Origin: a virus
Lineage: Duplodnaviria > Caudoviricetes
IMG/VR virus record: IMGVR_UViG_3300037247_001786
Location: 320,001 to 384,000 of that record
DNA: 64,000 nucleotides
Direction: 5' to 3' (one strand)
Shown here: positions 527-56,035 of the stretch, piece by piece
How the letters are laid out: each line of letters starts with the position of its first letter
Numbering within the stretch: the first letter of the stretch is position 1
Made by a program: the position numbers and the translations under genes
Notes under the pieces: generated by a model
Told to the model about the DNA's origin: nothing
The model's database searches: none
Seen by the model: only the letters and a program-made list of their open reading frames with translations

Positions 527-665
527 TTATATTATCTCCAATTATGAGGTATATATATATTATTCGACAAAATGAATAAAAATCCTACATCTCAATATTT
601 AGATTAGAAAAGTGAAAGAGATGATAGTATAATTCGTTCTAATATTAAAATAAAGGAAATAAAAT

Positions 666-2192
666 ATGAATGGAGATGGATGTACCAAACCAGCAAAAGG
701 GGGAAGTAACCTTACCTCAACAATAACAGAGCCATATCGACGAGCTGATATAGTTGTTTCAGCCGAAGATCGAATGTACGAACGTGATGAGTGCAAAAAC
801 GAGTGTACTCCGGCACCTCTAGGTTGCGGAGAAGATAGTCTAGGAAGAAAAATTGAAGGAAAAGAGATAGATATTTCCACGGTGAATTTTGCTAATGAGA
901 TCAAAGTAGACTTTATCCCTTCTATTGATTATAGAATAATGTGCCGTTTTCTGGGGCTTTCTGTTGTCACTGAAGTTAAAAATCATCCTTATTCTGAGTG
1001 TCCTCTCATTACGTTAATGTTGATGGAAAATTTGATAGATTTTATGAAAAAAGAGGGCTATGCTTTTGCCGGAGAATTAAATTTTGATAGAAGTGGGCAG
1101 TCAGTTCCAGTTGATAAAACGGTTTGGAAGATTAAGAATAAAGAGATATCTTTCACTTCAACAGGATTCATGTATTTCGAGAACATCAAAAAGAAAGACA
1201 AACAGAGTAATTTGATTTTTTACTTGTCAACGATATTGGATCATGGATCAGCATCGATAACTTGCTTTACCAATGATGAAAAAAAATCTGAACGAGTGAT
1301 TAAAGACCTAGAGGCTTATTCTAAGGACTATAATTGTTTAAGAGGAGCTAAGATTAGAGATATTAATATGTATGGAGCTAGTTTCTCAGAAGTCGCCTAT
1401 AGAGAGGAATGCACTTGGGATAACTACTATTACACTGATGATGTTAAAGATATTTTTGAATTAGAAGTATTCGGATTTCTTAAAAATGTAAAACAATATA
1501 ATCTTCATGGCATAACTAAAAGAGGCTTGATAATTTACGGTCCTCCAGGAACAGGTAAAACTACTATCGGACATATTCTATGTAACAATCTCCCAGATCA
1601 TACTGTTATATGGATAACTCCAGAAATTATACAGGAGAATCAACATCACTCTTATTCCTCTATTAAGTTGTTGTATAAGCTTGCAGATTTTGTTTCGCCA
1701 TCAGTTATTATATTAGAAGACTTAGATCTATTTAGTAATGACAGAGAGAGGGGAGGGGACATGTTAGGATTGGGATCTCTTATGAATGTTTTAGATGGCG
1801 TTAACTCAATATACAATGCCGTTACTCTCGGAACGACTAATAGGTTAGAAACTATTGAAAAAGCTCTCACAAACCGTCCTGGGCGTTTTGATAGGATAGT
1901 AGAGATATCTCCCCTCGACGATGATTTGAGAAGAAGGATGTTCGAAAATAGATTAGAGGAATGGGAATATGAGGATGAGGTACTTGAACATCTTATTGCA
2001 AAAACTGGGGAATGGACTGGGGCAGAGTCTCAAGAGTTTATAAATACACTTAATCTTAAATTAATCAGTTCTGATAATGAAGATAAGAAAATAGATATTG
2101 AACTGGTAAACGAAATCATCGAGATAATGCAAAAATTTGGCGTTGGAGAGAGTTCAGGAAAAGTGCTTGGTTTCGGTCAAAGAGATAAGTAG
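666..2192 (+). CDS. AAA+ family ATPase
   Basis: Walker A GPPGTGKT, Walker B IILEDLD, SRH TTNR...RPGRFD. Confidence 0.92.
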   Translation: MNGDGCTKPAKGGSNLTSTITEPYRRADIVVSAEDRMYERDECKNECTPAPLGCGEDSLGRKIEGKEIDISTVNFANEIKVDFIPSIDYRIMCRFLGLSVVTEVKNHPYSECPLITLMLMENLIDFMKKEGYAFAGELNFDRSGQSVPVDKTVWKIKNKEISFTSTGFMYFENIKKKDKQSNLIFYLSTILDHGSASITCFTNDEKKSERVIKDLEAYSKDYNCLRGAKIRDINMYGASFSEVAYREECTWDNYYYTDDVKDIFELEVFGFLKNVKQYNLHGITKRGLIIYGPPGTGKTTIGHILCNNLPDHTVIWITPEIIQENQHHSYSSIKLLYKLADFVSPSVIILEDLDLFSNDRERGGDMLGLGSLMNVLDGVNSIYNAVTLGTTNRLETIEKALTNRPGRFDRIVEISPLDDDLRRRMFENRLEEWEYEDEVLEHLIAKTGEWTGAESQEFINTLNLKLISSDNEDKKIDIELVNEIIEIMQKFGVGESSGKVLGFGQRDK

Positions 2193-3422: not shown

Positions 3423-4655
3423 ATGAAAGATTTAGTTAAGACAATTAAAAAAATAAGCAAGAGACACCCAGGATATCTAGGAGATTTTTTGCCTATAAGA
3501 TTATTGAAGTATAATTTCTTGAAGAGAGGTTTAGATAGAGAAGTTAAAGCTGACATGGTGAATGTACAGTCTCATCCACAGTTTCCTCATCTAAAAATAT
3601 ACAAGTACTCTCAAGACGCAGTTTGCGAAAGAAATTGGAACGAGATAACTCTTATAGCTAGAGGTCTGATAGTAGATACAGAAGCTAAAAAAGTTATAGC
3701 TACTCCTTTTGTAAAATTCTTTAATTATTCAGAGTTGATACCTATCGCTGAAATAATGGAAAAAGAATTTGTTGCTTTAGAGAAACTTGACGGATCAATG
3801 GGTATATGCTTCTTTTACGAGAACAAATGGAGAATAGCTACTTGCGGTTCTTTTGCTTCTGAGCAGTCTCAGTGGGCTAATAAATATTTTGCAAAGTATA
3901 TACAAGATAGGCATCTTGAAGAAGATACTACATACTTATTAGAAATAATATACCCAGAGAATAAGATAGTTGTTCCTTACTCAAAAGAAACTTTATGTTT
4001 GTTATCAGCTTACAGAAAAGGTTACGAGTTAGAGAAAAAAGAGTTAGATATAGTGGCTTTTAAATCTGGATTTTCTGTTCCAGAAACTTATGACTTTAAT
4101 AAATTGGATAAGATATTACACGAAGCATCTATCATAGATCATACTCAAGAAGGTTTTGTAGTTAGGTTTAAGTCTGGTGTTAGAGTTAAGATAAAAGGTG
4201 ACGAATATTGTCGTATCCATAAGTTGATATCTAGAGTAACTCCTATTGCCGTATGGGAGATGTTGGTAAGCGGCGATGATATGGAATCTGTGAAAAAAGA
4301 TCTTCCAGAAGAGATGGAGTTCGACTACGATAACATAGTTTCTATCTTAAGAGCTATGTTGCAAGAAACTCTTGACGGTATAGATCATGCTTACGAAGCG
4401 ACAAAACACTTGTCTGATAAAGAACTTGGTTTGGACTTGTCTAACAAAGAATCAGAGTATCTTAAAGACGAGATAGTGAAACAATTTAAGTCTTATATTT
4501 TTCCTAGGAGAAAAAACACATTTGAGGAGCAGTTCAATGATGTTGATTCTTTGATGAGAAGGAAGATATTTAAGTTGTTTAGACCTAAGAGCAACTTTTT
4601 AGAAGGGTACGTTCCTTCTTCTGCTATGAACAGGTTTCAAGACGGAGTGAATTAA
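3423..4655 (+). CDS. RNA ligase, T4 Rnl1-like
   Basis: ARGLI...PFVKFFN, motif I EKLDGS, EIIYPENKIVV, EGFVV, RVKIK. Confidence 0.9.
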   Translation: MKDLVKTIKKISKRHPGYLGDFLPIRLLKYNFLKRGLDREVKADMVNVQSHPQFPHLKIYKYSQDAVCERNWNEITLIARGLIVDTEAKKVIATPFVKFFNYSELIPIAEIMEKEFVALEKLDGSMGICFFYENKWRIATCGSFASEQSQWANKYFAKYIQDRHLEEDTTYLLEIIYPENKIVVPYSKETLCLLSAYRKGYELEKKELDIVAFKSGFSVPETYDFNKLDKILHEASIIDHTQEGFVVRFKSGVRVKIKGDEYCRIHKLISRVTPIAVWEMLVSGDDMESVKKDLPEEMEFDYDNIVSILRAMLQETLDGIDHAYEATKHLSDKELGLDLSNKESEYLKDEIVKQFKSYIFPRRKNTFEEQFNDVDSLMRRKIFKLFRPKSNFLEGYVPSSAMNRFQDGVN

Positions 4656-4682
4656 TCACTGTCAAGTATCTACATTTTCTAC

Positions 4683-4711
4683 TTGACAGTGATTCTCTTT
4701 TATGCTATAAT
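4683..4711 (+). promoter_or_regulatory. Sigma70-like promoter
   Basis: TTGACA-17-TATAAT, extended -10 TG. Confidence 0.8.
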
Positions 4712-4750
4712 GCCTCTTATCGTATTATTTACAACTAGAGGAATTTATAA

Positions 4751-5182
4751 ATGGAAAAAAAGTATGTATTGCTAGCATGTCCCATATTAAAAGATGGTAA
4801 AGATATAATAGGAAACCCTTTTGTATCTGGTGAGTTTATTCAATCTAAAGTTTTTGTTCGAGATGGAAATATCGATACTGGTTTGAGAGGTTTCTTATGG
4901 GGAAAATGTCCTAGATTTCGTCATAAAAATATTTTAAAATTTGACTGGGCGGTAGTGAAAACAGAAGTAAACGAAAATTTACTTTTGTTAGATAATGTCA
5001 CTAACGAGACCAAATTTAAAAGGGGGATAATACTTTATATCGGAAAGATACAAAGTTGTGCAGATTTCATCTTAAATATTAAAGATGATGAACAGCAGTA
5101 TTTTCTTGATGAAATAAAATCTTTAACATTAGAACAAATACTTGGAACAGAAGAATGGAAAAGGAAACAAGAAAAATGGTAA
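4751..5182 (+). CDS. Hypothetical protein
   Basis: ORF downstream of promoter with GAGGA RBS. Confidence 0.6.
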   Translation: MEKKYVLLACPILKDGKDIIGNPFVSGEFIQSKVFVRDGNIDTGLRGFLWGKCPRFRHKNILKFDWAVVKTEVNENLLLLDNVTNETKFKRGIILYIGKIQSCADFILNIKDDEQQYFLDEIKSLTLEQILGTEEWKRKQEKW

Positions 5183-5490
5183 AACCAATTACGCCAGAAG
5201 AAATTACGACTACAAAAGAAGATCTTATTCCAGATGAAGTTATAGAATCATTTAACGAAATGATTGTTGCGAAATGGAATGGAACAGAATCTTTTTTCAG
5301 GCTAAAAGAGATAACTACTGTAGCCAAGAGAAAATTAAATCTGCGAAAACCAAAAAAAGAATTCGATAGTAAATGGTTAGATGTAGAAGACATTTATCGA
5401 AGATTAGGTTGGAACGTAGTATATATGTCTCCCGACTGGGGCGAAGATTATGATGCTTATTTTACATTTAGCAAAAAGGATAAAAAATAA
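5155..5490 (+). CDS. Hypothetical protein
   Basis: ORF in coupled gene run. Confidence 0.6.
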   Translation: MEKETRKMVKPITPEEITTTKEDLIPDEVIESFNEMIVAKWNGTESFFRLKEITTVAKRKLNLRKPKKEFDSKWLDVEDIYRRLGWNVVYMSPDWGEDYDAYFTFSKKDKK

Positions 5491-6167
5491 TGTTCCTGAT
5501 CGGCGACGTTCATGGCGAGTGGAAAACTTATAGACATATCATAGAAAAGATGCAACTTAAGGGTGGCAGAAAAGGTATGGACTGCTCTCTCGTTCTAGGC
5601 GATATGGGTATAGGTTTTGAAGATTTCTCAAATGATAGCATTAGAGATAGAAGTTTCATAAAAGATATCCCTCTTCAACATAAATTCATAGTGGGGAACC
5701 ACGACGATCGTGATTTAGCAAATACTCATCCTAATTGTTTGGGAGATTTTGGATATCATGAAAAGAGTGAACTGTTTTATGTGTCAGGTGGTTTTTCAAT
5801 TGATTATGAATGGAGAGAAAAAGATATTACTTGGTGGGAGAACGAAGAGCTTTCTGCCAAGCAAATAGATGAGGCTCTTGAGTTGTACTCGAAAGTTAAG
5901 CCAAAAATAATAGTGGCTCATGAGTGTCCTACAGAGGTGAAATATTTTGTTATTACTAATCCTCTAAAAAGAGAGATTAAATCAAGGACGGAGAAGATGC
6001 TTCAAAAGATGATAGAAATTCATCGTCCAGATTATTTTATTTTTGGGCATCATCACCAAAGAGAAGAAACTAATATAGATGGAACTCAATATATCTGTTT
6101 GGGAACTTTAAGTTACGATGGATACTCACAATGTATCTTTGAGATACCAGGAATAACATGGGAATAA
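5490..6167 (+). CDS. Metallophosphoesterase (calcineurin-like)
   Basis: GDVHG, GD, GNHD, H, GHHH motifs. Confidence 0.88.
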   Translation: MFLIGDVHGEWKTYRHIIEKMQLKGGRKGMDCSLVLGDMGIGFEDFSNDSIRDRSFIKDIPLQHKFIVGNHDDRDLANTHPNCLGDFGYHEKSELFYVSGGFSIDYEWREKDITWWENEELSAKQIDEALELYSKVKPKIIVAHECPTEVKYFVITNPLKREIKSRTEKMLQKMIEIHRPDYFIFGHHHQREETNIDGTQYICLGTLSYDGYSQCIFEIPGITWE

Positions 6168-6814
6168 AAAAGAAAATAATTTATTGCATAAGTGATATGC
6201 ATGGTTGCATCTCGGAACTAACTATTCCTGAGTGTGATATATTGCTGATAGCGGGAGATGTATCTCGTTATGGTAGGCAACTCTATAAAGACGCGAATTG
6301 GCTGGAAGACCACTTTAATAAGTGGCTTGGAGAGCAACCCGCTAAACATATTGTTATGACTCCTGGTAATCATGATATTATTTTTGAGAAGATGCCAGGA
6401 CTAATTCCTAAAATAAATTGTCATGTTCTTATAGATGAAATGATAGAGATTGAAGGGATAAAGATATATGGATCTCCTTGGACTATCGAATTTTATCATT
6501 GGGCTTTTAATCTGAAAGAAGAAAATCTTAAAATGGTTTGGGACCAGATACCAGATGATACCGATATATTGCTTGTTCATTCTCCTCCTTATTGCATCTT
6601 TGACATGACTAACTCACCAGGATATCCTAGAAAAAGAATAGGTAGTAAGAGTCTTAAAAAGAGGATAGAAGAGGTGCGTCCTAAATATGTTATCTTTGGG
6701 CATAATCATGGAGAAGTAGGCGTAAAGGAAGAAAAGGGCATTACTTATATTAATGCTTCTCTCCTTGACGACTTATATATGATGGTTAATTCTCCCATTT
6801 TAATAGAGATATAA
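6158..6814 (+). CDS. Metallophosphoesterase (calcineurin-like)
   Basis: SDMHG, AGD, PGNHD, HSPP, FGHNH motifs. Confidence 0.9.
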   Translation: MGIKKKIIYCISDMHGCISELTIPECDILLIAGDVSRYGRQLYKDANWLEDHFNKWLGEQPAKHIVMTPGNHDIIFEKMPGLIPKINCHVLIDEMIEIEGIKIYGSPWTIEFYHWAFNLKEENLKMVWDQIPDDTDILLVHSPPYCIFDMTNSPGYPRKRIGSKSLKKRIEEVRPKYVIFGHNHGEVGVKEEKGITYINASLLDDLYMMVNSPILIEI

Positions 6815-21252: not shown

Positions 21253-22134
21253 ATGGAAGATCGTTTTATCGGCAAGCGTATTGGAAGAGTTGTAGTATTA
21301 AAGCAGATTGGTGTCAAAAAGAAAAGAAAAGCTTACGAATGCCTATGTTCTTGTGGGAAAAAAGATATATTAAGTTCTGATCAATTATCAAGAAATAAGA
21401 ATCCTGGGTGTAAGAAATGTAGCCGTAGAATTAAATTTACAGATTTAAAAGGGCAAAGATTTAACAAATTAGTAGTTATAAAAGAAGATGTAAGTTATAA
21501 AGGTAACGGGGTAAAATGGCATTGCCTCTGTGACTGTGGGAATAAGACAGTCGTTTTGTCGGGGTCATTAAAAAACGGACATACAAAATCTTGCAGTTGC
21601 TTACAAAAAGAAAAAGTCAGTAAAATAAAAGTTAATTTAACAGGACAGAAATTTGGGAAATTAACAGTTATAAAAAAAGAGCCCGAGAACGCTAAGTGGC
21701 TGTGCAAGTGTGAATGTGGCAATGAAGTTATTACTCGCTCAACGTCTTTGTACTCTGGGGCGACGAAGTCTTGCGGTTGTATTCGTATAGAAATGCACAC
21801 CGGCCCAAATAGTAGATTTTGGAAAGGTGGTATAACTTTAATTAATAGGGGTATTAAAAAATCTTCTAAATATTGGAAGTGGGTAAGATATGTAAAAAAA
21901 AGAGATCAATATACTTGCCAATGTTGTTCTTTGCAAGCAATTAGTAAGAAATTACATGCTCATCATATAAGAAATTTTGCTGATAATATTGATGTAGCTT
22001 TTGATACTAATAATGGGATTACTCTATGTGAGGGATGCCATAAAAAATTTCATGCTGTTTATGGAAAAATTAAAACAGATAATAAACAATTAACGGAATT
22101 TATTAAAAATGAAAAAATCAAAAATAAAACTTGA
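21253..22134 (+). mobile_element. Free-standing HNH homing endonuclease with three Cys-rich repeats
   Basis: 3x G..FGKL.V...W.C.C.CG repeats; C-terminal YTCQCC..LHAHH..NGITLCEGCHKKFH; overlaps start of next gene. Confidence 0.85.
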
Positions 22135-23113
22135 AGATATTGGTTTCTATACCTTATATGAAGAGAGGTGTAAATATGCTAATGCGACAAGCCCTATGAT
22201 TAGAGCGGAACTTATTATAACTAGTTTTTGTAATTTTAATTGTCCCTACTGCCGAGGTATGAGAGAAGAATGTAGAGGCGACATGTCATTATTCCAAGCT
22301 CTTCGAACCATTTATTTTTGGACAGATGATAACCTCAAAAACATTCGCTTCTCAGGAGGAGAGCCAACTCTTCATAAAGGTTTAATGGATATGGTTCGCT
22401 ATGCTAAAGAAAGAGGAGTAGAAAGAATTGCTCTCTCCACAAATGGTAGTGCGAAAACAGAATTATATGATGAACTTGTCGAAGCTGGCGTTAACGATTT
22501 CTCGATTTCTTTAGATGCCTGCTGCTCAACTTATGCAGATAAAATGGCTGGCGTTGACGGTCAGTTCCAAAAAATTATTGATAATATTAAGTATCTTTCA
22601 GAGAAGACTTATGTAACTGTCGGCGTTGTGTTTACCGAAGAAACTGTTGATAGTATTGTAGAGGTTATACAATTGGCTAATGACTTGGGCGTATCTGATA
22701 TTCGTATCATCTCTGCTGCTCAAGAGAGTGAAACATATTTCAAATTTTCAAAGTCAGTTTCTGTCTTCGGCACAGGTTTCAGAAAGAGATATCCTATATT
22801 AGCGTATAGGTTAGAAAATATCGAAGAAAATGTTCCTGTCAGAGGTTTGATAGAGAGCGATTCTCATAGATGCGGTTTGATGACAGATGACAGTATGGTT
22901 GCTGGTAAGTGGCATTATCCTTGCATCATACATTTCAGAGAGGGAGGAGACCCTATCGGAGAAGTTGGTCCTAATATGAGAAAAGAGAGAATAGATTGGT
23001 TAAAGACACATGATACCCACTCTGATCCTATCTGCAAAAAAAATTGTTTGGATGTATGCGTAGCATATAATAACAGATTCGCAAAATATTCTGGCATGAG
23101 AAAGAATATTTAA
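22109..23113 (+). CDS. Radical SAM protein
   Basis: CNFNCPYC, GGEPTLH, STNG, ISLD; extra C-terminal Cys. Confidence 0.9.
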   Translation: MKKSKIKLEDIGFYTLYEERCKYANATSPMIRAELIITSFCNFNCPYCRGMREECRGDMSLFQALRTIYFWTDDNLKNIRFSGGEPTLHKGLMDMVRYAKERGVERIALSTNGSAKTELYDELVEAGVNDFSISLDACCSTYADKMAGVDGQFQKIIDNIKYLSEKTYVTVGVVFTEETVDSIVEVIQLANDLGVSDIRIISAAQESETYFKFSKSVSVFGTGFRKRYPILAYRLENIEENVPVRGLIESDSHRCGLMTDDSMVAGKWHYPCIIHFREGGDPIGEVGPNMRKERIDWLKTHDTHSDPICKKNCLDVCVAYNNRFAKYSGMRKNI

Positions 23114-23114
23114 C

Positions 23115-23145
23115 TTGAAAGTGATTTTTAAATATGATATAGTAT
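23115..23145 (+). promoter_or_regulatory. Sigma70-like promoter
   Basis: TTGAAA GTGATTTT...TATAGT. Confidence 0.65.
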
Positions 23146-23170
23146 TGTTTTAAGATAAAAGGAGATAAAT

Positions 23171-23362
23171 ATGTTATATATTTTAGTTGGTATCGTTTGG
23201 GGAATATTCTCTGTAAAAATGCAGCAAAAGTTCCATCCTACTTGCAGCGATAAAAGAGATTTAGCCATTAACTTTATTGTTAATGGGGTGATATGGCCTA
23301 TCAGTATGGTTGTCGCCGCTTATCGTTATTTCACTAAAACTGGTTGGGCAAAGAATTTATAG
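23171..23362 (+). CDS. Small membrane protein
   Basis: AGGAG RBS, two TM. Confidence 0.55.
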   Translation: MLYILVGIVWGIFSVKMQQKFHPTCSDKRDLAINFIVNGVIWPISMVVAAYRYFTKTGWAKNL

Positions 23363-23373
23363 TATTGTAATAA

Positions 23374-23530
23374 CGGCTCGTACCTCAGAGGACAGAGGGT
23401 CTAGCTCATGTAGTCATGTCCATGCCTAATTTCGAAATACGGCTAAGGAGAAGACGGAGTCATTCTAGAATAAGACTTTAATACGTGAGAACTACTAGAA
23501 AGTCGCAGTGTTCGAATCCTGCCGGGCCGA
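23374..23530 (+). tRNA. tRNA (CAT-like anticodon) interrupted by ~83-nt insertion in the anticodon loop
   Basis: Acceptor CGGCTCG/CGGGCCG, D stem CCTC/GAGG, anticodon stem TCTAG(23400)/CTAGA(23495), TTCGAAT T-loop; 90 nt where a 7-nt loop is expected. Confidence 0.75.
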
Positions 23531-23552
23531 TTTTTTTGGAAAGGAAAGTGTT

Positions 23553-23744
23553 ATGGCTAGTTTTATATGTTTATTAATTATAGCGGGATTAATTTATTGT
23601 TTCGTAAATAAGGACAACGAAATAGTAGAGTGCATAGTCGCTGCAATCGTAACTATCTTTTTACTATTGGTAGCTTTGATCATTGCTTATTTTCCTTATA
23701 TTCTTATCGCATGTGCAGTAGTCCTCCTTGCTAAAGGTTGTTAG
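23553..23744 (+). CDS. Small membrane protein
   Basis: ATG with AGGAAAG RBS; track start 23508 lies inside the tRNA. Confidence 0.5.
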   Translation: MASFICLLIIAGLIYCFVNKDNEIVECIVAAIVTIFLLLVALIIAYFPYILIACAVVLLAKGC

Positions 23745-23769
23745 CAAAGAGGAAGAAAGGTAATGTCGT

Positions 23770-24633
23770 ATGAAGATACAAACTTTTTCAATAGTAATAG
23801 GTGATAAAAGATGTAATGCTAGATGCCCTTATTGCGTTTCTAAAATGACGGGCGATGAAGGGCTTGAGTGCGGTTCTCAAGGCATCAATTACAGAAACCT
23901 TAAGAAGGCTTGTGAGTTCGCAAAGATGTCAGGAGTTAGTACTATACTGCTAACTGGTAAAGGAGAGCCTTTACTCCATATAGATCAAATCACAGAATAT
24001 CTCCGTTTAATAGATGGATATAATTTCCCATTTATCGAATTACAAACCAATGGGATAAAACTGTCTGAACCCGTAACTCAATCCACACTTGGACTTTGGT
24101 ATAGCCTCGGATTAACTACTGTATCTCTCTCTTGTGTTCATTGGGACGATAGCTATAATCAAAGAATTTTCGGCAAAAATTATGGTTCTTTAAAAGAATA
24201 TGTTGACATATTACATGATAATTTTCTTTCTGTAAGATTAAGTTGCGTAATGTGTAAAGGTTATATTCATAATCTTCAAATGGTTCAAGCTTTTGCCAGA
24301 ACATGTAAGAGATGGGGAGTTGAGCAGTTTACTGTACGTCCAGTTAATTATGCTACTGGAGGTAACGAGAAGATAGAAAACTGGGTCAGAGACCATTTTG
24401 TAACTGAAGGTATGATGAATAGCATTGAGAGATTTCTTGATAGGAGTAAAGAATCTACTCTATTATTAGAACTCGCTCATGGAGCGAAAGTGTATGATTA
24501 TATGGGTCAGAACCTCTCCTTAAGTTCTTGCTTGACTAGTAGTCCTAATCCAGATGATATAAGACAACTAATATTTTTTCCAGACGGGCACTTGAAATAT
24601 TCTTGGACCGAGGCTGGAGCAATTTTATTTTAG
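23770..24633 (+). CDS. Radical SAM protein
   Basis: CNARCPYC, GKGEPLL, ELQTNG. Confidence 0.9.
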   Translation: MKIQTFSIVIGDKRCNARCPYCVSKMTGDEGLECGSQGINYRNLKKACEFAKMSGVSTILLTGKGEPLLHIDQITEYLRLIDGYNFPFIELQTNGIKLSEPVTQSTLGLWYSLGLTTVSLSCVHWDDSYNQRIFGKNYGSLKEYVDILHDNFLSVRLSCVMCKGYIHNLQMVQAFARTCKRWGVEQFTVRPVNYATGGNEKIENWVRDHFVTEGMMNSIERFLDRSKESTLLLELAHGAKVYDYMGQNLSLSSCLTSSPNPDDIRQLIFFPDGHLKYSWTEAGAILF

Positions 24634-31812: not shown

Positions 31813-32401
31813 TGACTTATTACTATATATTGAGCCGAAAACAGACCCATCTGTGATGCCAGTAATAGATGCTCTTACTTGTTCAATGGTTCATGCTTTG
31901 AGAAAAGCGAAAGAGGGAAGTGTTAATTACTGGACTGAACCTCCATATACTTTCGAAGAAGGTAACGGATATAAAGGTTGGCATAGGTGTTCCTGTGGAG
32001 TTACTTCTAGCAATAAGGATTACCAGTTGCCAGGTGGAGAGATGACAAATAGTTTGGCAATACATTACCTCGCCTATCATAGAAATGAAATAAGTGAAGA
32101 ACAATTGAAAAGAGTTGAAGCTCTTACCGAGGATACAGATTTGCCCACTGATGAAGAATTAAAAGTCCCGAAAGGATCAGAAGGCTATAGTACAAAAGCT
32201 GTAATAGACTCGATATACCCTCCACCTGATGAAGACTATTCAGTTGGTTTTAAAAATAGAGGAATGGGTAGGGGCGATTTTTGTGTCATGTCTAGAAATG
32301 GAGAGGTCATAGCAGAAATAATTACAAACGAAAAGGCGGAAGAGAATGCTAATTTTATAGCTAAGGCTTGTAACGCATATGCAAAAAAGGAAGAAAAATA
32401 A
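31799..32401 (+). CDS. Hypothetical protein
   Basis: H.CSCG..S...Y..P.G..TNSLA.HY..YHR pattern. Confidence 0.6.
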   Translation: MAVNNDLLLYIEPKTDPSVMPVIDALTCSMVHALRKAKEGSVNYWTEPPYTFEEGNGYKGWHRCSCGVTSSNKDYQLPGGEMTNSLAIHYLAYHRNEISEEQLKRVEALTEDTDLPTDEELKVPKGSEGYSTKAVIDSIYPPPDEDYSVGFKNRGMGRGDFCVMSRNGEVIAEIITNEKAEENANFIAKACNAYAKKEEK

Positions 32402-52523: not shown

Positions 52524-52611
52524 GACGAAGAAACAGTAGGGTTTAGCCTCAATGACTCCGGGTCAACCGGACGTATTTGAGGAATGGGGAGTTCGAATCT
52601 CTCCTTCGTTA
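52524..52611 (+). ncRNA. tRNA-like RNA with elongated anticodon arm
   Basis: GACGAAG/CTTCGTT, GGGAG-TTCGAAT-CTCTC, CCTCAA/TTGAGG capped by TCCGG-GTCAA-CCGGA. Confidence 0.6.
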
Positions 52612-52685
52612 TTATTAGTTGGTGTCGTCTAAATCTGGCAGGTAACACAAGGGCATGCTCTGAATAACTTGTCCAACTGATTAGA

Positions 52686-52771
52686 TACGAAGTATGTACG
52701 CTCTTCGGAGTAGGATAGTTGGCTTATTCTTGCAAGAAGGTCAACTGTGGGTTCGACTCCCACCTTCGTAG
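52686..52771 (+). ncRNA. tRNA-like RNA with TTCG hairpin in D position and elongated anticodon arm (CT TGC AA)
   Basis: TACGAAG/CTTCGTA, GTGGG-TTCGACT-CCCAC, AGTTGGC/GTCAACT. Confidence 0.6.
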
Positions 52772-54203: not shown

Positions 54204-54206
54204 TTT

Positions 54207-54295
54207 GAAGAGGTAGCTCAGTTTGGTAGAGCGTCAGTCACGTCTGGCCAGACTATGAAATCTGAAGGTCGCAGGTTCGAATCCTGCCCTCTTCA
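54207..54295 (+). tRNA. tRNA of undetermined identity with 15-nt hairpin insertion in the anticodon loop
   Basis: Perfect GAAGAGG/CCTCTTC, GCTC/GAGC, GCAGG-TTCGAAT-CCTGC; 22-nt loop containing GTCTGGCCAGAC. Confidence 0.75.
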
Positions 54296-54298
54296 TTT

Positions 54299-55921: not shown

Positions 55922-56035
55922 GGGAACGCTGACATTAATATAGAAATATGATTAAGCTTTATGTGGCGAGTCAGCCTATAATCGTATGTATAGGTACTTT
56001 TGATAGTTATGTAGGTTCGAATCCTGCCGTTCCCA
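55922..56035 (+). ncRNA. 114-nt tRNA-like RNA with greatly expanded D loop
   Basis: GGGAACG/CGTTCCC, CTGAC..36 nt..GTCAG, CCTATA/TATAGG, GTAGG-TTCGAAT-CCTGC. Confidence 0.65.

Follow-up and report, generated by a model that had tools for sequence, protein, structure and literature searches.

Here we describe a transfer RNA (tRNA)-shaped element with an 83-nt insert in its anticodon loop, encoded by a Caudoviricetes phage whose genome (IMG/VR record IMGVR_UViG_3300037247_001786; 460,978 bp with direct terminal repeats) originates from a marine-sediment metagenome. The element covers 157 nt, at positions 23374–23530 on the plus strand of the window, the 64,000-nt stretch that was analysed, which corresponds to bases 320001–384000 of the record and has a GC content of 35%. 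Its conserved architecture, the covariation of its helices and the tRNA calls obtained in silico show that the element is real, is an RNA-level feature and is under selection. As to its role, we give about an even chance to the reading that it is a carrier RNA derived from tRNA-Val, with the three-way-junction insert as the selected payload, and that it is no working tRNA(CAU) gene.

Results

The outer body of the element, all of it on the plus strand, is that of a tRNA. The 5′ strand of the acceptor stem, CGGCTCG (23374–23380), pairs with CGGGCCG (23523–23529), two of the seven pairs being compensatory in homologues, and the 3′ strand is followed by the discriminator A73 (23523–23530 together), with no CCA encoded; none of the tRNAs of this phage has an encoded CCA. 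After U8 and A9 comes the D arm (23383–23398), made of CCTC, a loop with GG, and GAGG, in which A14, G18G19 and A21 are present along with U8 and pair 10:27 flips from C-G to G-C. The nearly invariant anticodon stem pairs TCTAG (23400–23404) with CTAGA (23495–23499) and is separated by a 5-nt variable loop from the T arm (23505–23522), which reads GCAG[T]G/TTCGAAT/CCTGC, with three compensatory pairs and a one-base bulge, T23509, in its 5′ strand. The nucleotides of the tRNA core are in place, the acceptor, D and anticodon stems all form and covary, and the T stem departs from the norm by this conserved bulge, which is common to all four aligned copies and is an extra base that the canonical tRNAs of related phages do not have. 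The initial annotation had described a full cloverleaf in which 90 nt lie between TCTAG and CTAGA; the letters are as described.

The former anticodon loop (C32 U33 CAU G37 U) and the first insert base, CTCATGTA (23405–23412), form the 5′ strand of an 8-bp extension helix, the 3′ strand of which, TACGTGAG (23482–23489), is contributed by the 3′ end of the insert; seven of the pairs are Watson-Crick and one is U·G. Between the two strands lie, in this order, hairpin A, hairpin B and two unpaired A's. Hairpin A (23413–23455) has three stems of 3 bp each, separated by two conserved internal loops, and ends in a 14-nt loop that includes the palindrome ATTTCGAAAT; hairpin B (23456–23479) has a 6-bp stem with compensatory pairs 88:105 and 89:104 and a 12-nt loop with the palindrome ATTCTAGAAT. 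Both palindromic tips are 10 nt long and of the form AUU-NNNN-AAU. The extension helix is followed by a conserved 5-nt bulge, AACTA (23490–23494; RACKA in the family), whose last A would become position 38 after removal of the insert. Pairing of the anticodon loop with the 3′ end of the insert, and a bulge after the paired strand, had been proposed before and are borne out by the sequence, by the minimum free energy (MFE) fold and by five covarying pairs.

The MFE fold of 158 nt is a cloverleaf with the anticodon arm extended into a three-way junction, with an energy z-score of −1.6 that is not significant alone. Neither ARAGORN with default settings nor Rfam scans (gathering thresholds and E ≤ 10) gave a tRNA match at 23374–23530, and for ARAGORN to find the element, introns had to be permitted and the threshold reduced to 90%. 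Since ARAGORN in intron mode at 90% also gave 13 matches in the reversed genome, detection in that mode is no evidence by itself, and the case from one genome is weak. With the 83 nt deleted in silico, by contrast, all four copies are called as tRNAs by ARAGORN at default settings, which gave 0 matches in the reversed genome. The Rfam scans matched no ribozyme, riboswitch, intron or other family, two matches with E~7 being noise. The smallest group I introns are ~200 nt long. The insert had earlier been judged too short for a group I intron, which agrees with its length of 83 nt and with the lack of an Rfam family; a group I intron was rejected also on layout, the partner of the anticodon being the 3′ end of the insert, and the insert ending in ...ACU(A) with no terminal G.

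Homologues were fetched from metagenome contigs with a pattern of the insert core, and three complete ones (L040:106–263, L041:2090–2246 and L042:718–876) were combined with the window copy into alignment A1. The insert is exactly 83 nt long in all of them, and the architecture is identical. RNAalifold on A1 yields the cloverleaf with the three-way junction, 98.9% of the cells of this four-sequence alignment form standard pairs, and two-sided changes occur at 13 of the 44 pairs, compared with 5.4 ± 1.6 in shuffles (0 of 500 reach 13) and 1–2 in slid controls. The compensatory pairs are distributed over the acceptor stem (two), the D stem (one), the extension helix (five of eight), hairpin B (two) and the T stem (three), and the U·G and G·U pairs are compatible with plus-strand RNA only.

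These changes bear on the possibility that the element is a decaying tRNA pseudogene, left functionless after a selfish or accidental insertion. Its rejection by the standard finders, its imperfect T stem, its G37 and its duplication of canonical tRNAs would suit such a remnant, whereas every helix, in the acceptor, D and T arms as well as in the insert, is kept by compensatory changes, the insert keeps its length of 83 nt, the bulge in the T stem recurs in every copy and is not random, promoter-like sites precede every copy, and the element persists amid gene turnover, all of which makes decay very improbable in our view. An unrelated open reading frame (ORF) remnant at this place in relatives, without the pairing, would have counted against the element; all homologues keep the insert and its covarying helix. 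In L042, a 182-amino-acid ORF (642–1190, plus strand) runs through the element; in L040 the downstream gene begins right after the element, so the longer frame is probably a spurious extension of that gene.

Mean pairwise identity is lowest in the extension helix (68%) and reaches 94% in hairpin A and 95% in the anticodon stem. In hairpin A, 38 of the 43 columns are invariant, 24 of the 43 positions having been preset by the search pattern. An independent set, obtained without that pattern, consists of the contigs of four other marine metagenome runs on window positions 22800–24200; they cover the element better than its flanks and carry the insert with few changes in 23412–23470, and here too hairpin A is the best covered and least changed part. 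One 2.9-kb contig combines C23407T, G23410A and T23411C with G23487A, C23484T, A23483G and G23485A, which are compensatory in the helix between anticodon and insert. The invariant internal loops of hairpin A and the palindromic tips may point to a partner protein that is a dimer, or to kissing contacts between RNAs.

No allele without the insert was found, in a sample that is small and biased towards carriers: no contig of the four runs joins across the insert, and an insert-less pattern was unmatched in IMG/VR. Three exact patterns of the insert core had no match in IMG/VR, and two pattern scans over 185,579 prokaryote genomes had none either, so that these genomes offer no prophage or host clue. 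BLAST of the element against five whole related huge-phage records gave chance matches only, and the element was absent, by BLAST or intron-mode ARAGORN, from 36 IMG/VR loci with relatives of either of the two radical S-adenosylmethionine (SAM) proteins encoded on its flanks. A phage GenBank collection contained remote matches to the flanking genes only, for example in the 735-kb LR756501.

A covariance model built from A1 (R1) finds one copy in the phage genome, and in four related huge-phage records its best matches are canonical tRNA-Val(UAC/GAC) and tRNA-Ile. About three quarters of the body of L040 and L042 match the tRNA-Val(UAC) of one related phage, as estimated by eye on the alignment. 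Judged by these best matches and by the similarity of the body, the element family is a derivative of a huge-phage tRNA-Val(UAC).

The anticodon does not lie in a free 7-nt loop and is instead paired within the 8-bp helix, and its identity differs between copies: the window copy shares CAT with one close relative, L041 has TAT, as do several contigs, position 37 then being G or A and position 33 U or C, and L040 and L042 have TAC, each change being matched by compensation in the insert. The window copy has G37, whereas all phage tRNAs that read ANN codons, including the three canonical CAU tRNAs, have A37. The name tRNA(CAT) given in the initial annotation does not describe the family, whose other members carry TAT and TAC, and sits poorly with the atypical G37 of the window copy itself. 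The canonical tRNAs of the phage span 20 of 20 amino acids, among them Val-UAC and three CAU tRNAs. Taken together, the drift of the anticodon, G37, the T-stem bulge and this canonical coverage indicate selection on pairing rather than on decoding.

Two arguments about decoding were discarded. The presence of C33 was dropped as an argument against decoding, because C33 occurs in a canonical tRNA-Ile(GAU) of the phage (window 55445–55519, plus strand; loop CCGATAA) and also in two related huge phages (L047 and L048), whose canonical tRNA-Val(UAC) has the loop CCTACAA; non-U33 in such otherwise normal phage tRNAs may be linked to the evasion of anticodon nucleases. The restriction of the anticodons to Val, Ile and Met was dropped as evidence for decoding, being a trivial result of A35 staying fixed while positions 34 and 36 undergo transitions.

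A different reading takes the insert for an "enigmatic" phage tRNA intron that is spliced by proteins: an endonuclease would recognise the extension helix, the bulge and hairpin A, a phage ligase, Rnl1-like or Rnl2-like, assisted by phosphoesterases would reseal the RNA, and the product would be a working tRNA, for Ile2 or Met in the window phage and for Ile(UAU) or Val(UAC) in relatives. We regard this as a substantial minority possibility. Several observations favour it and weigh against a carrier RNA. The conservation of hairpin A, on which the notion of a payload leans, is inflated, as it comes from four full sequences only that were fetched by a hairpin A pattern. Excising exactly 83 nt restores a 7-nt loop with C32, A35, R37 and A38 in all four copies, each of them then called by ARAGORN as noted above, and the full tRNA core is under purifying selection. 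After removal at 37/38, the loops of L042, L040 and L041 read CCUACAA, CUUACAA and CUUAUAA; these three, out of four, have exact counterparts among the canonical loops of related huge phages, the first two fitting Val and the third Ile-UAU, and the C33 among them is found in canonical tRNAs of these phages. AUA, the Ile codon that the phage uses most (3.7% of codons), could be read by both syntenic copies, by L041 with UAU and by the window copy with CAU provided that it carries lysidine. The phage also has other tRNA-like genes with enlarged anticodon loops, and three genes of RNA-ligase families together with two metallophosphoesterases. A precedent is in print as well, Devoto et al. 2019 (PMC6784885) having reported highly conserved "enigmatic" introns in tRNAs of Lak megaphages, which are of neither group I nor group II, with a T4-type ligase and no mechanism. 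The restored loops, the use of AUA, the ligases, the other enlarged loops and the Lak precedent keep splicing a live rival.

On the other side of the balance, the phage has no candidate endonuclease, the 5′ cut would fall inside the covarying helix, and the anticodon identity changes among close homologues within the fastest-evolving segment of the element, with G37 beside CAU in the window copy. An intron also leaves the conserved T-stem bulge without explanation, would have no insert-less allele among the contigs or by the IMG/VR pattern, and would give a product that duplicates canonical tRNAs; for the Lak inserts themselves, we found no later publication that demonstrates splicing or shows a mechanism. 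In its narrower form, in which a true intron of a bacterial virus, with helix, RACKA bulge and hairpin A as the substrate, is removed by proteins including an Rnl1-type ligase and phosphoesterases while decoding is re-tuned among Val, Ile, Ile2 and Met, the idea seems to us somewhat doubtful.

The geometry of the would-be splice sites adds to this. The 5′ strand is free of bulges from the anticodon stem through eight covarying pairs, and a single 5-nt bulge lies on the 3′ strand, a layout that is neither bulge-helix-bulge (3-nt bulge, 4-bp helix, 3-nt bulge) nor bulge-helix-loop. As the 5′ strand is unbulged, a cut after position 37 would have to be made inside a Watson-Crick helix, 5–6 bp from the sole bulge that would hold the 3′ site, which matches no known splicing endonuclease. 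The 461-kb phage genome contains no tRNA-intron endonuclease (PF01974) and no RtcB (PF01139), both of which were detected in control genomes. An intron of the archaeal bulge-helix-bulge type, with EndA as the nuclease and RtcB as the ligase, would account for an insert that lies at or beside the canonical 37/38 position and pairs with the anticodon, and for a bulge at the would-be 3′ splice site, and a loose resemblance to archaeal splice sites had been remarked on in the initial annotation. That resemblance does not survive: the 3-nt/4-bp/3-nt layout is missing, the 8-bp helix is continuous and covaries throughout, with its bulge on the 3′ strand only, neither of the two protein families is encoded, and a transfer-messenger RNA (tmRNA) gene and sigma-70-type promoters point to a bacterial host. 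We consider such an intron hardly credible. By structure and covariation, both the pseudogene and the bulge-helix-bulge intron are largely excluded.

The RNA-ligase genes of the phage comprise an RNA-repair-like cassette at window 3423–6814 (plus strand), in which a 410-amino-acid Rnl1-type RNA ligase (3423–4655) is followed by two calcineurin-like metallophosphoesterases, and two further PF09414 RNA ligase genes (G000 282075–282539 and 314952–315533, G000 being the phage record).

If the element is a carrier RNA, it would be transcribed on the plus strand from a bacterial-type promoter, and host RNase P, 3′ trimming and the CCA enzyme would be able to excise and stabilise the RNA because the parts that make up the L-shape (A73, the acceptor stem and the D and T loops) are intact. 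The mature carrier would be 157 nt long plus a post-transcriptional CCA, with the former anticodon loop permanently closed in the 8-bp helix with the 3′ end of the insert, and with the insert folded into a tightly stacked three-way junction whose two hairpins are tipped by the 10-nt palindromes. The unspliced form would be the functional one, in which the tRNA body serves as the carrier and the insert as the payload, to which a protein or a second RNA would most likely bind, perhaps at hairpin A. We place the payload in the insert because the targets of selection appear to be the fold and hairpin A, which hardly varies, and the anticodon does not appear to be one. An inner mini-tRNA freed by RNase P and RNase Z, with the extension helix as acceptor and hairpin B as T arm, was also considered and rejected as a route to a working tRNA, since it would leave only a 4-nt anticodon loop.

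Putative transcription signals are found on both sides of the element. The initial annotation had placed it downstream of a promoter, and a TG-extended sigma-70-like promoter, TTGAAA-17-TATAGT, does lie at 23115–23143 (plus strand), 230 nt upstream of the element and ahead of an intervening ORF; the number of such sites equals the chance expectation and is not above shuffles, which weakens that proposal. In the homologues, sigma-70-like sites are present 14–150 nt upstream of every copy. L041 has identical TTGAAA-17-TATAGT hexamers 14 nt upstream of its element. The segment 23115–23143 is probably the transcription start region. The intervening ORF, of 63 amino acids (23171–23362, plus strand), stops 11 nt before the element and is of unassigned function, with a weak phrog_4955 match only; the coding sequence of its C terminus is also found upstream of the element in close relatives (loose contig ends), and the ORF is probably co-transcribed with the element. 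Directly after the element comes a run of seven T's (23531–23537, plus strand), with a terminator-like site plus T tail listed at 23510–23527, and the run is a probable terminator tail. Among the sequencing runs listed as containing this stretch, none is of RNA. The host of the phage is taken to be bacterial on account of the sigma-70-type promoter matches and of the tmRNA gene (Rfam RF00023, 101 bits), which lies away from the element at G000 298915–299266.

Both genes that flank the element encode radical SAM proteins, as had been reported, and these enzymes match only generic MoaA/SPASM-type models, far below cut-offs. An HNH endonuclease gene (21253–22134, plus strand; phrog_374, E 1.5e-42) overlaps the start of the first radical SAM gene. 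The syntenic relative L041, which shows up to 90% amino-acid identity to window 20.3–20.8 kb and further matches to 24.9–27.1 kb, retains the element and flanking genes and is without the HNH gene and both radical SAM genes, which makes these three genes look like a mobile cassette. L040 and L042 have the element at another locus, adjoining a homologue of the gene just past the tRNA array in the window phage. The element stays put while neighbouring genes turn over, and the link to the radical SAM enzymes that had been floated earlier is contradicted by L041, which keeps the element without either gene, and by the different locus in L040 and L042. Within the second radical SAM gene, 104 nt at window 23803–23908 are skipped in one run-X4 contig, which may be an indel variant or a chimeric contig.

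The phage has 36 tRNA genes (ARAGORN), most of them in an array that starts near window 53.5 kb, ~30 kb downstream of the element, which accordingly stands apart from the array, as had been noted from the start. Several further tRNA-like genes have enlarged or unusual anticodon regions. One at window 54206–54296 (plus strand; Rfam tRNA, 60 bits) has perfect acceptor, D and T arms and an anticodon loop of ~22 nt with the palindromic hairpin GTCTGGCCAGAC, and is reported by ARAGORN as "tRNA-???" or as Phe(GAA) with a non-canonically placed intron of 17 nt. A 91-nt "tRNA-???" at window 62465–62555 (plus strand) combines a long variable arm with an anticodon loop of 6 nt (anticodon "tg"). Between tRNA-Tyr and tRNA-Ser lies a 114-nt element (window 55922–56035, plus strand) with the acceptor stem GGGAACG/CGTTCCC, a T arm and a non-canonical middle, which is a weak R1 match (E 0.03). 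Two tRNA-like genes on the minus strand, G000 32000–32108 and 32164–32253, have intact acceptor and T arms and anticodon loops of ~40 and ~25 nt. Such tRNA bodies, enlarged in the anticodon region, form a whole set in this phage. Two intron calls by ARAGORN, at window 52576–52771 (Ala, 121-nt intron) and G000 384777–384996 (Cys, 125-nt intron), show poorly formed stems and are probably spurious.

Discussion

The element resembles several known systems in part. As in Lak (PMC6784885), a huge phage that encodes one or more RNA ligases carries an anticodon-loop insert of tens of nucleotides (93 nt in Lak tRNA-Tyr) that is neither group I nor group II and is highly conserved among relatives. The Lak inserts, however, have been characterised as tRNA-like, the printed tRNA-Tyr example having a canonical T arm, whereas the present insert is a three-way junction without an inner 5-bp stem and 7-nt T loop; the loop of hairpin A does contain TTCGAAA, with no closing G-C pair. 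The relatives of Lak include intron-less alleles, whereas the small and carrier-biased sample for the present element yielded none, and the anticodon here is a strand of a covarying helix, its identity drifts, and the T stem has a conserved bulge.

With the introns of archaeal and eukaryal pre-tRNAs, which are removed by EndA or TSEN together with RtcB or Trl1, the insert shares its position at or near 37/38, its pairing with the anticodon and a bulged 3′ site; it differs from them in having neither bulge-helix-bulge nor bulge-helix-loop motif, no phage endonuclease or RtcB, and a host that is taken to be bacterial. The group I introns of cyanobacterial tRNA-Leu(UAA), of tRNA-fMet and of Azoarcus tRNA-Ile(CAU) likewise interrupt an anticodon loop in the bacterial world, where the anticodon pairs with a 5′ guide and not, as here, with the 3′ end of the insert, the last base of which is not G.

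Engineered tRNA scaffolds graft a cargo RNA onto the anticodon arm of a tRNA so that it is stably expressed in bacteria. The element has the same outline, an intact acceptor/D/T core in which the anticodon loop has become a helix with structured cargo, and this is the mode of working that it most resembles; unlike these laboratory designs, it is natural and conserved, and its processing and stability would have to follow from its tRNA features. Mimicry of the tRNA L-shape is also known from tmRNA and YrlA (Chen et al. 2014, PMC4201824), non-decoding RNAs of which some are encoded by phages. YrlA ends at the anticodon-side stem and works with Rsr/Ro, whereas the present element ends at the acceptor stem and the phage has no TROVE protein (PF05731); tmRNA has a tag ORF and no anticodon arm, and the tmRNA of this phage lies elsewhere in the genome.

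Short inserts in huge-phage tRNA genes that are not group I introns are already in print; what sets this family apart is an insert that forms a three-way junction, an anticodon that serves as a strand of a covarying helix, an anticodon identity that drifts, and a conserved bulge in the T stem. Such short, non-self-splicing inserts were reported in 2019 and have since been unexplained, and the present case is a compact one whose structure is fixed by compensatory changes. It also implies that intron-aware tRNA annotation of huge phages may assign anticodons that are under no selection for decoding. If the insert is spliced, protein-based tRNA splicing, which textbooks reserve for archaea and eukaryotes, would occur in bacteria or their viruses; a true intron would represent the first protein-dependent tRNA splicing pathway of the bacterial world and a tractable model for the Lak introns. 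If the RNA is unspliced, the element would be a natural tRNA scaffold and would stand for a new class of phage small RNAs that use tRNA maturation to deliver a conserved payload.

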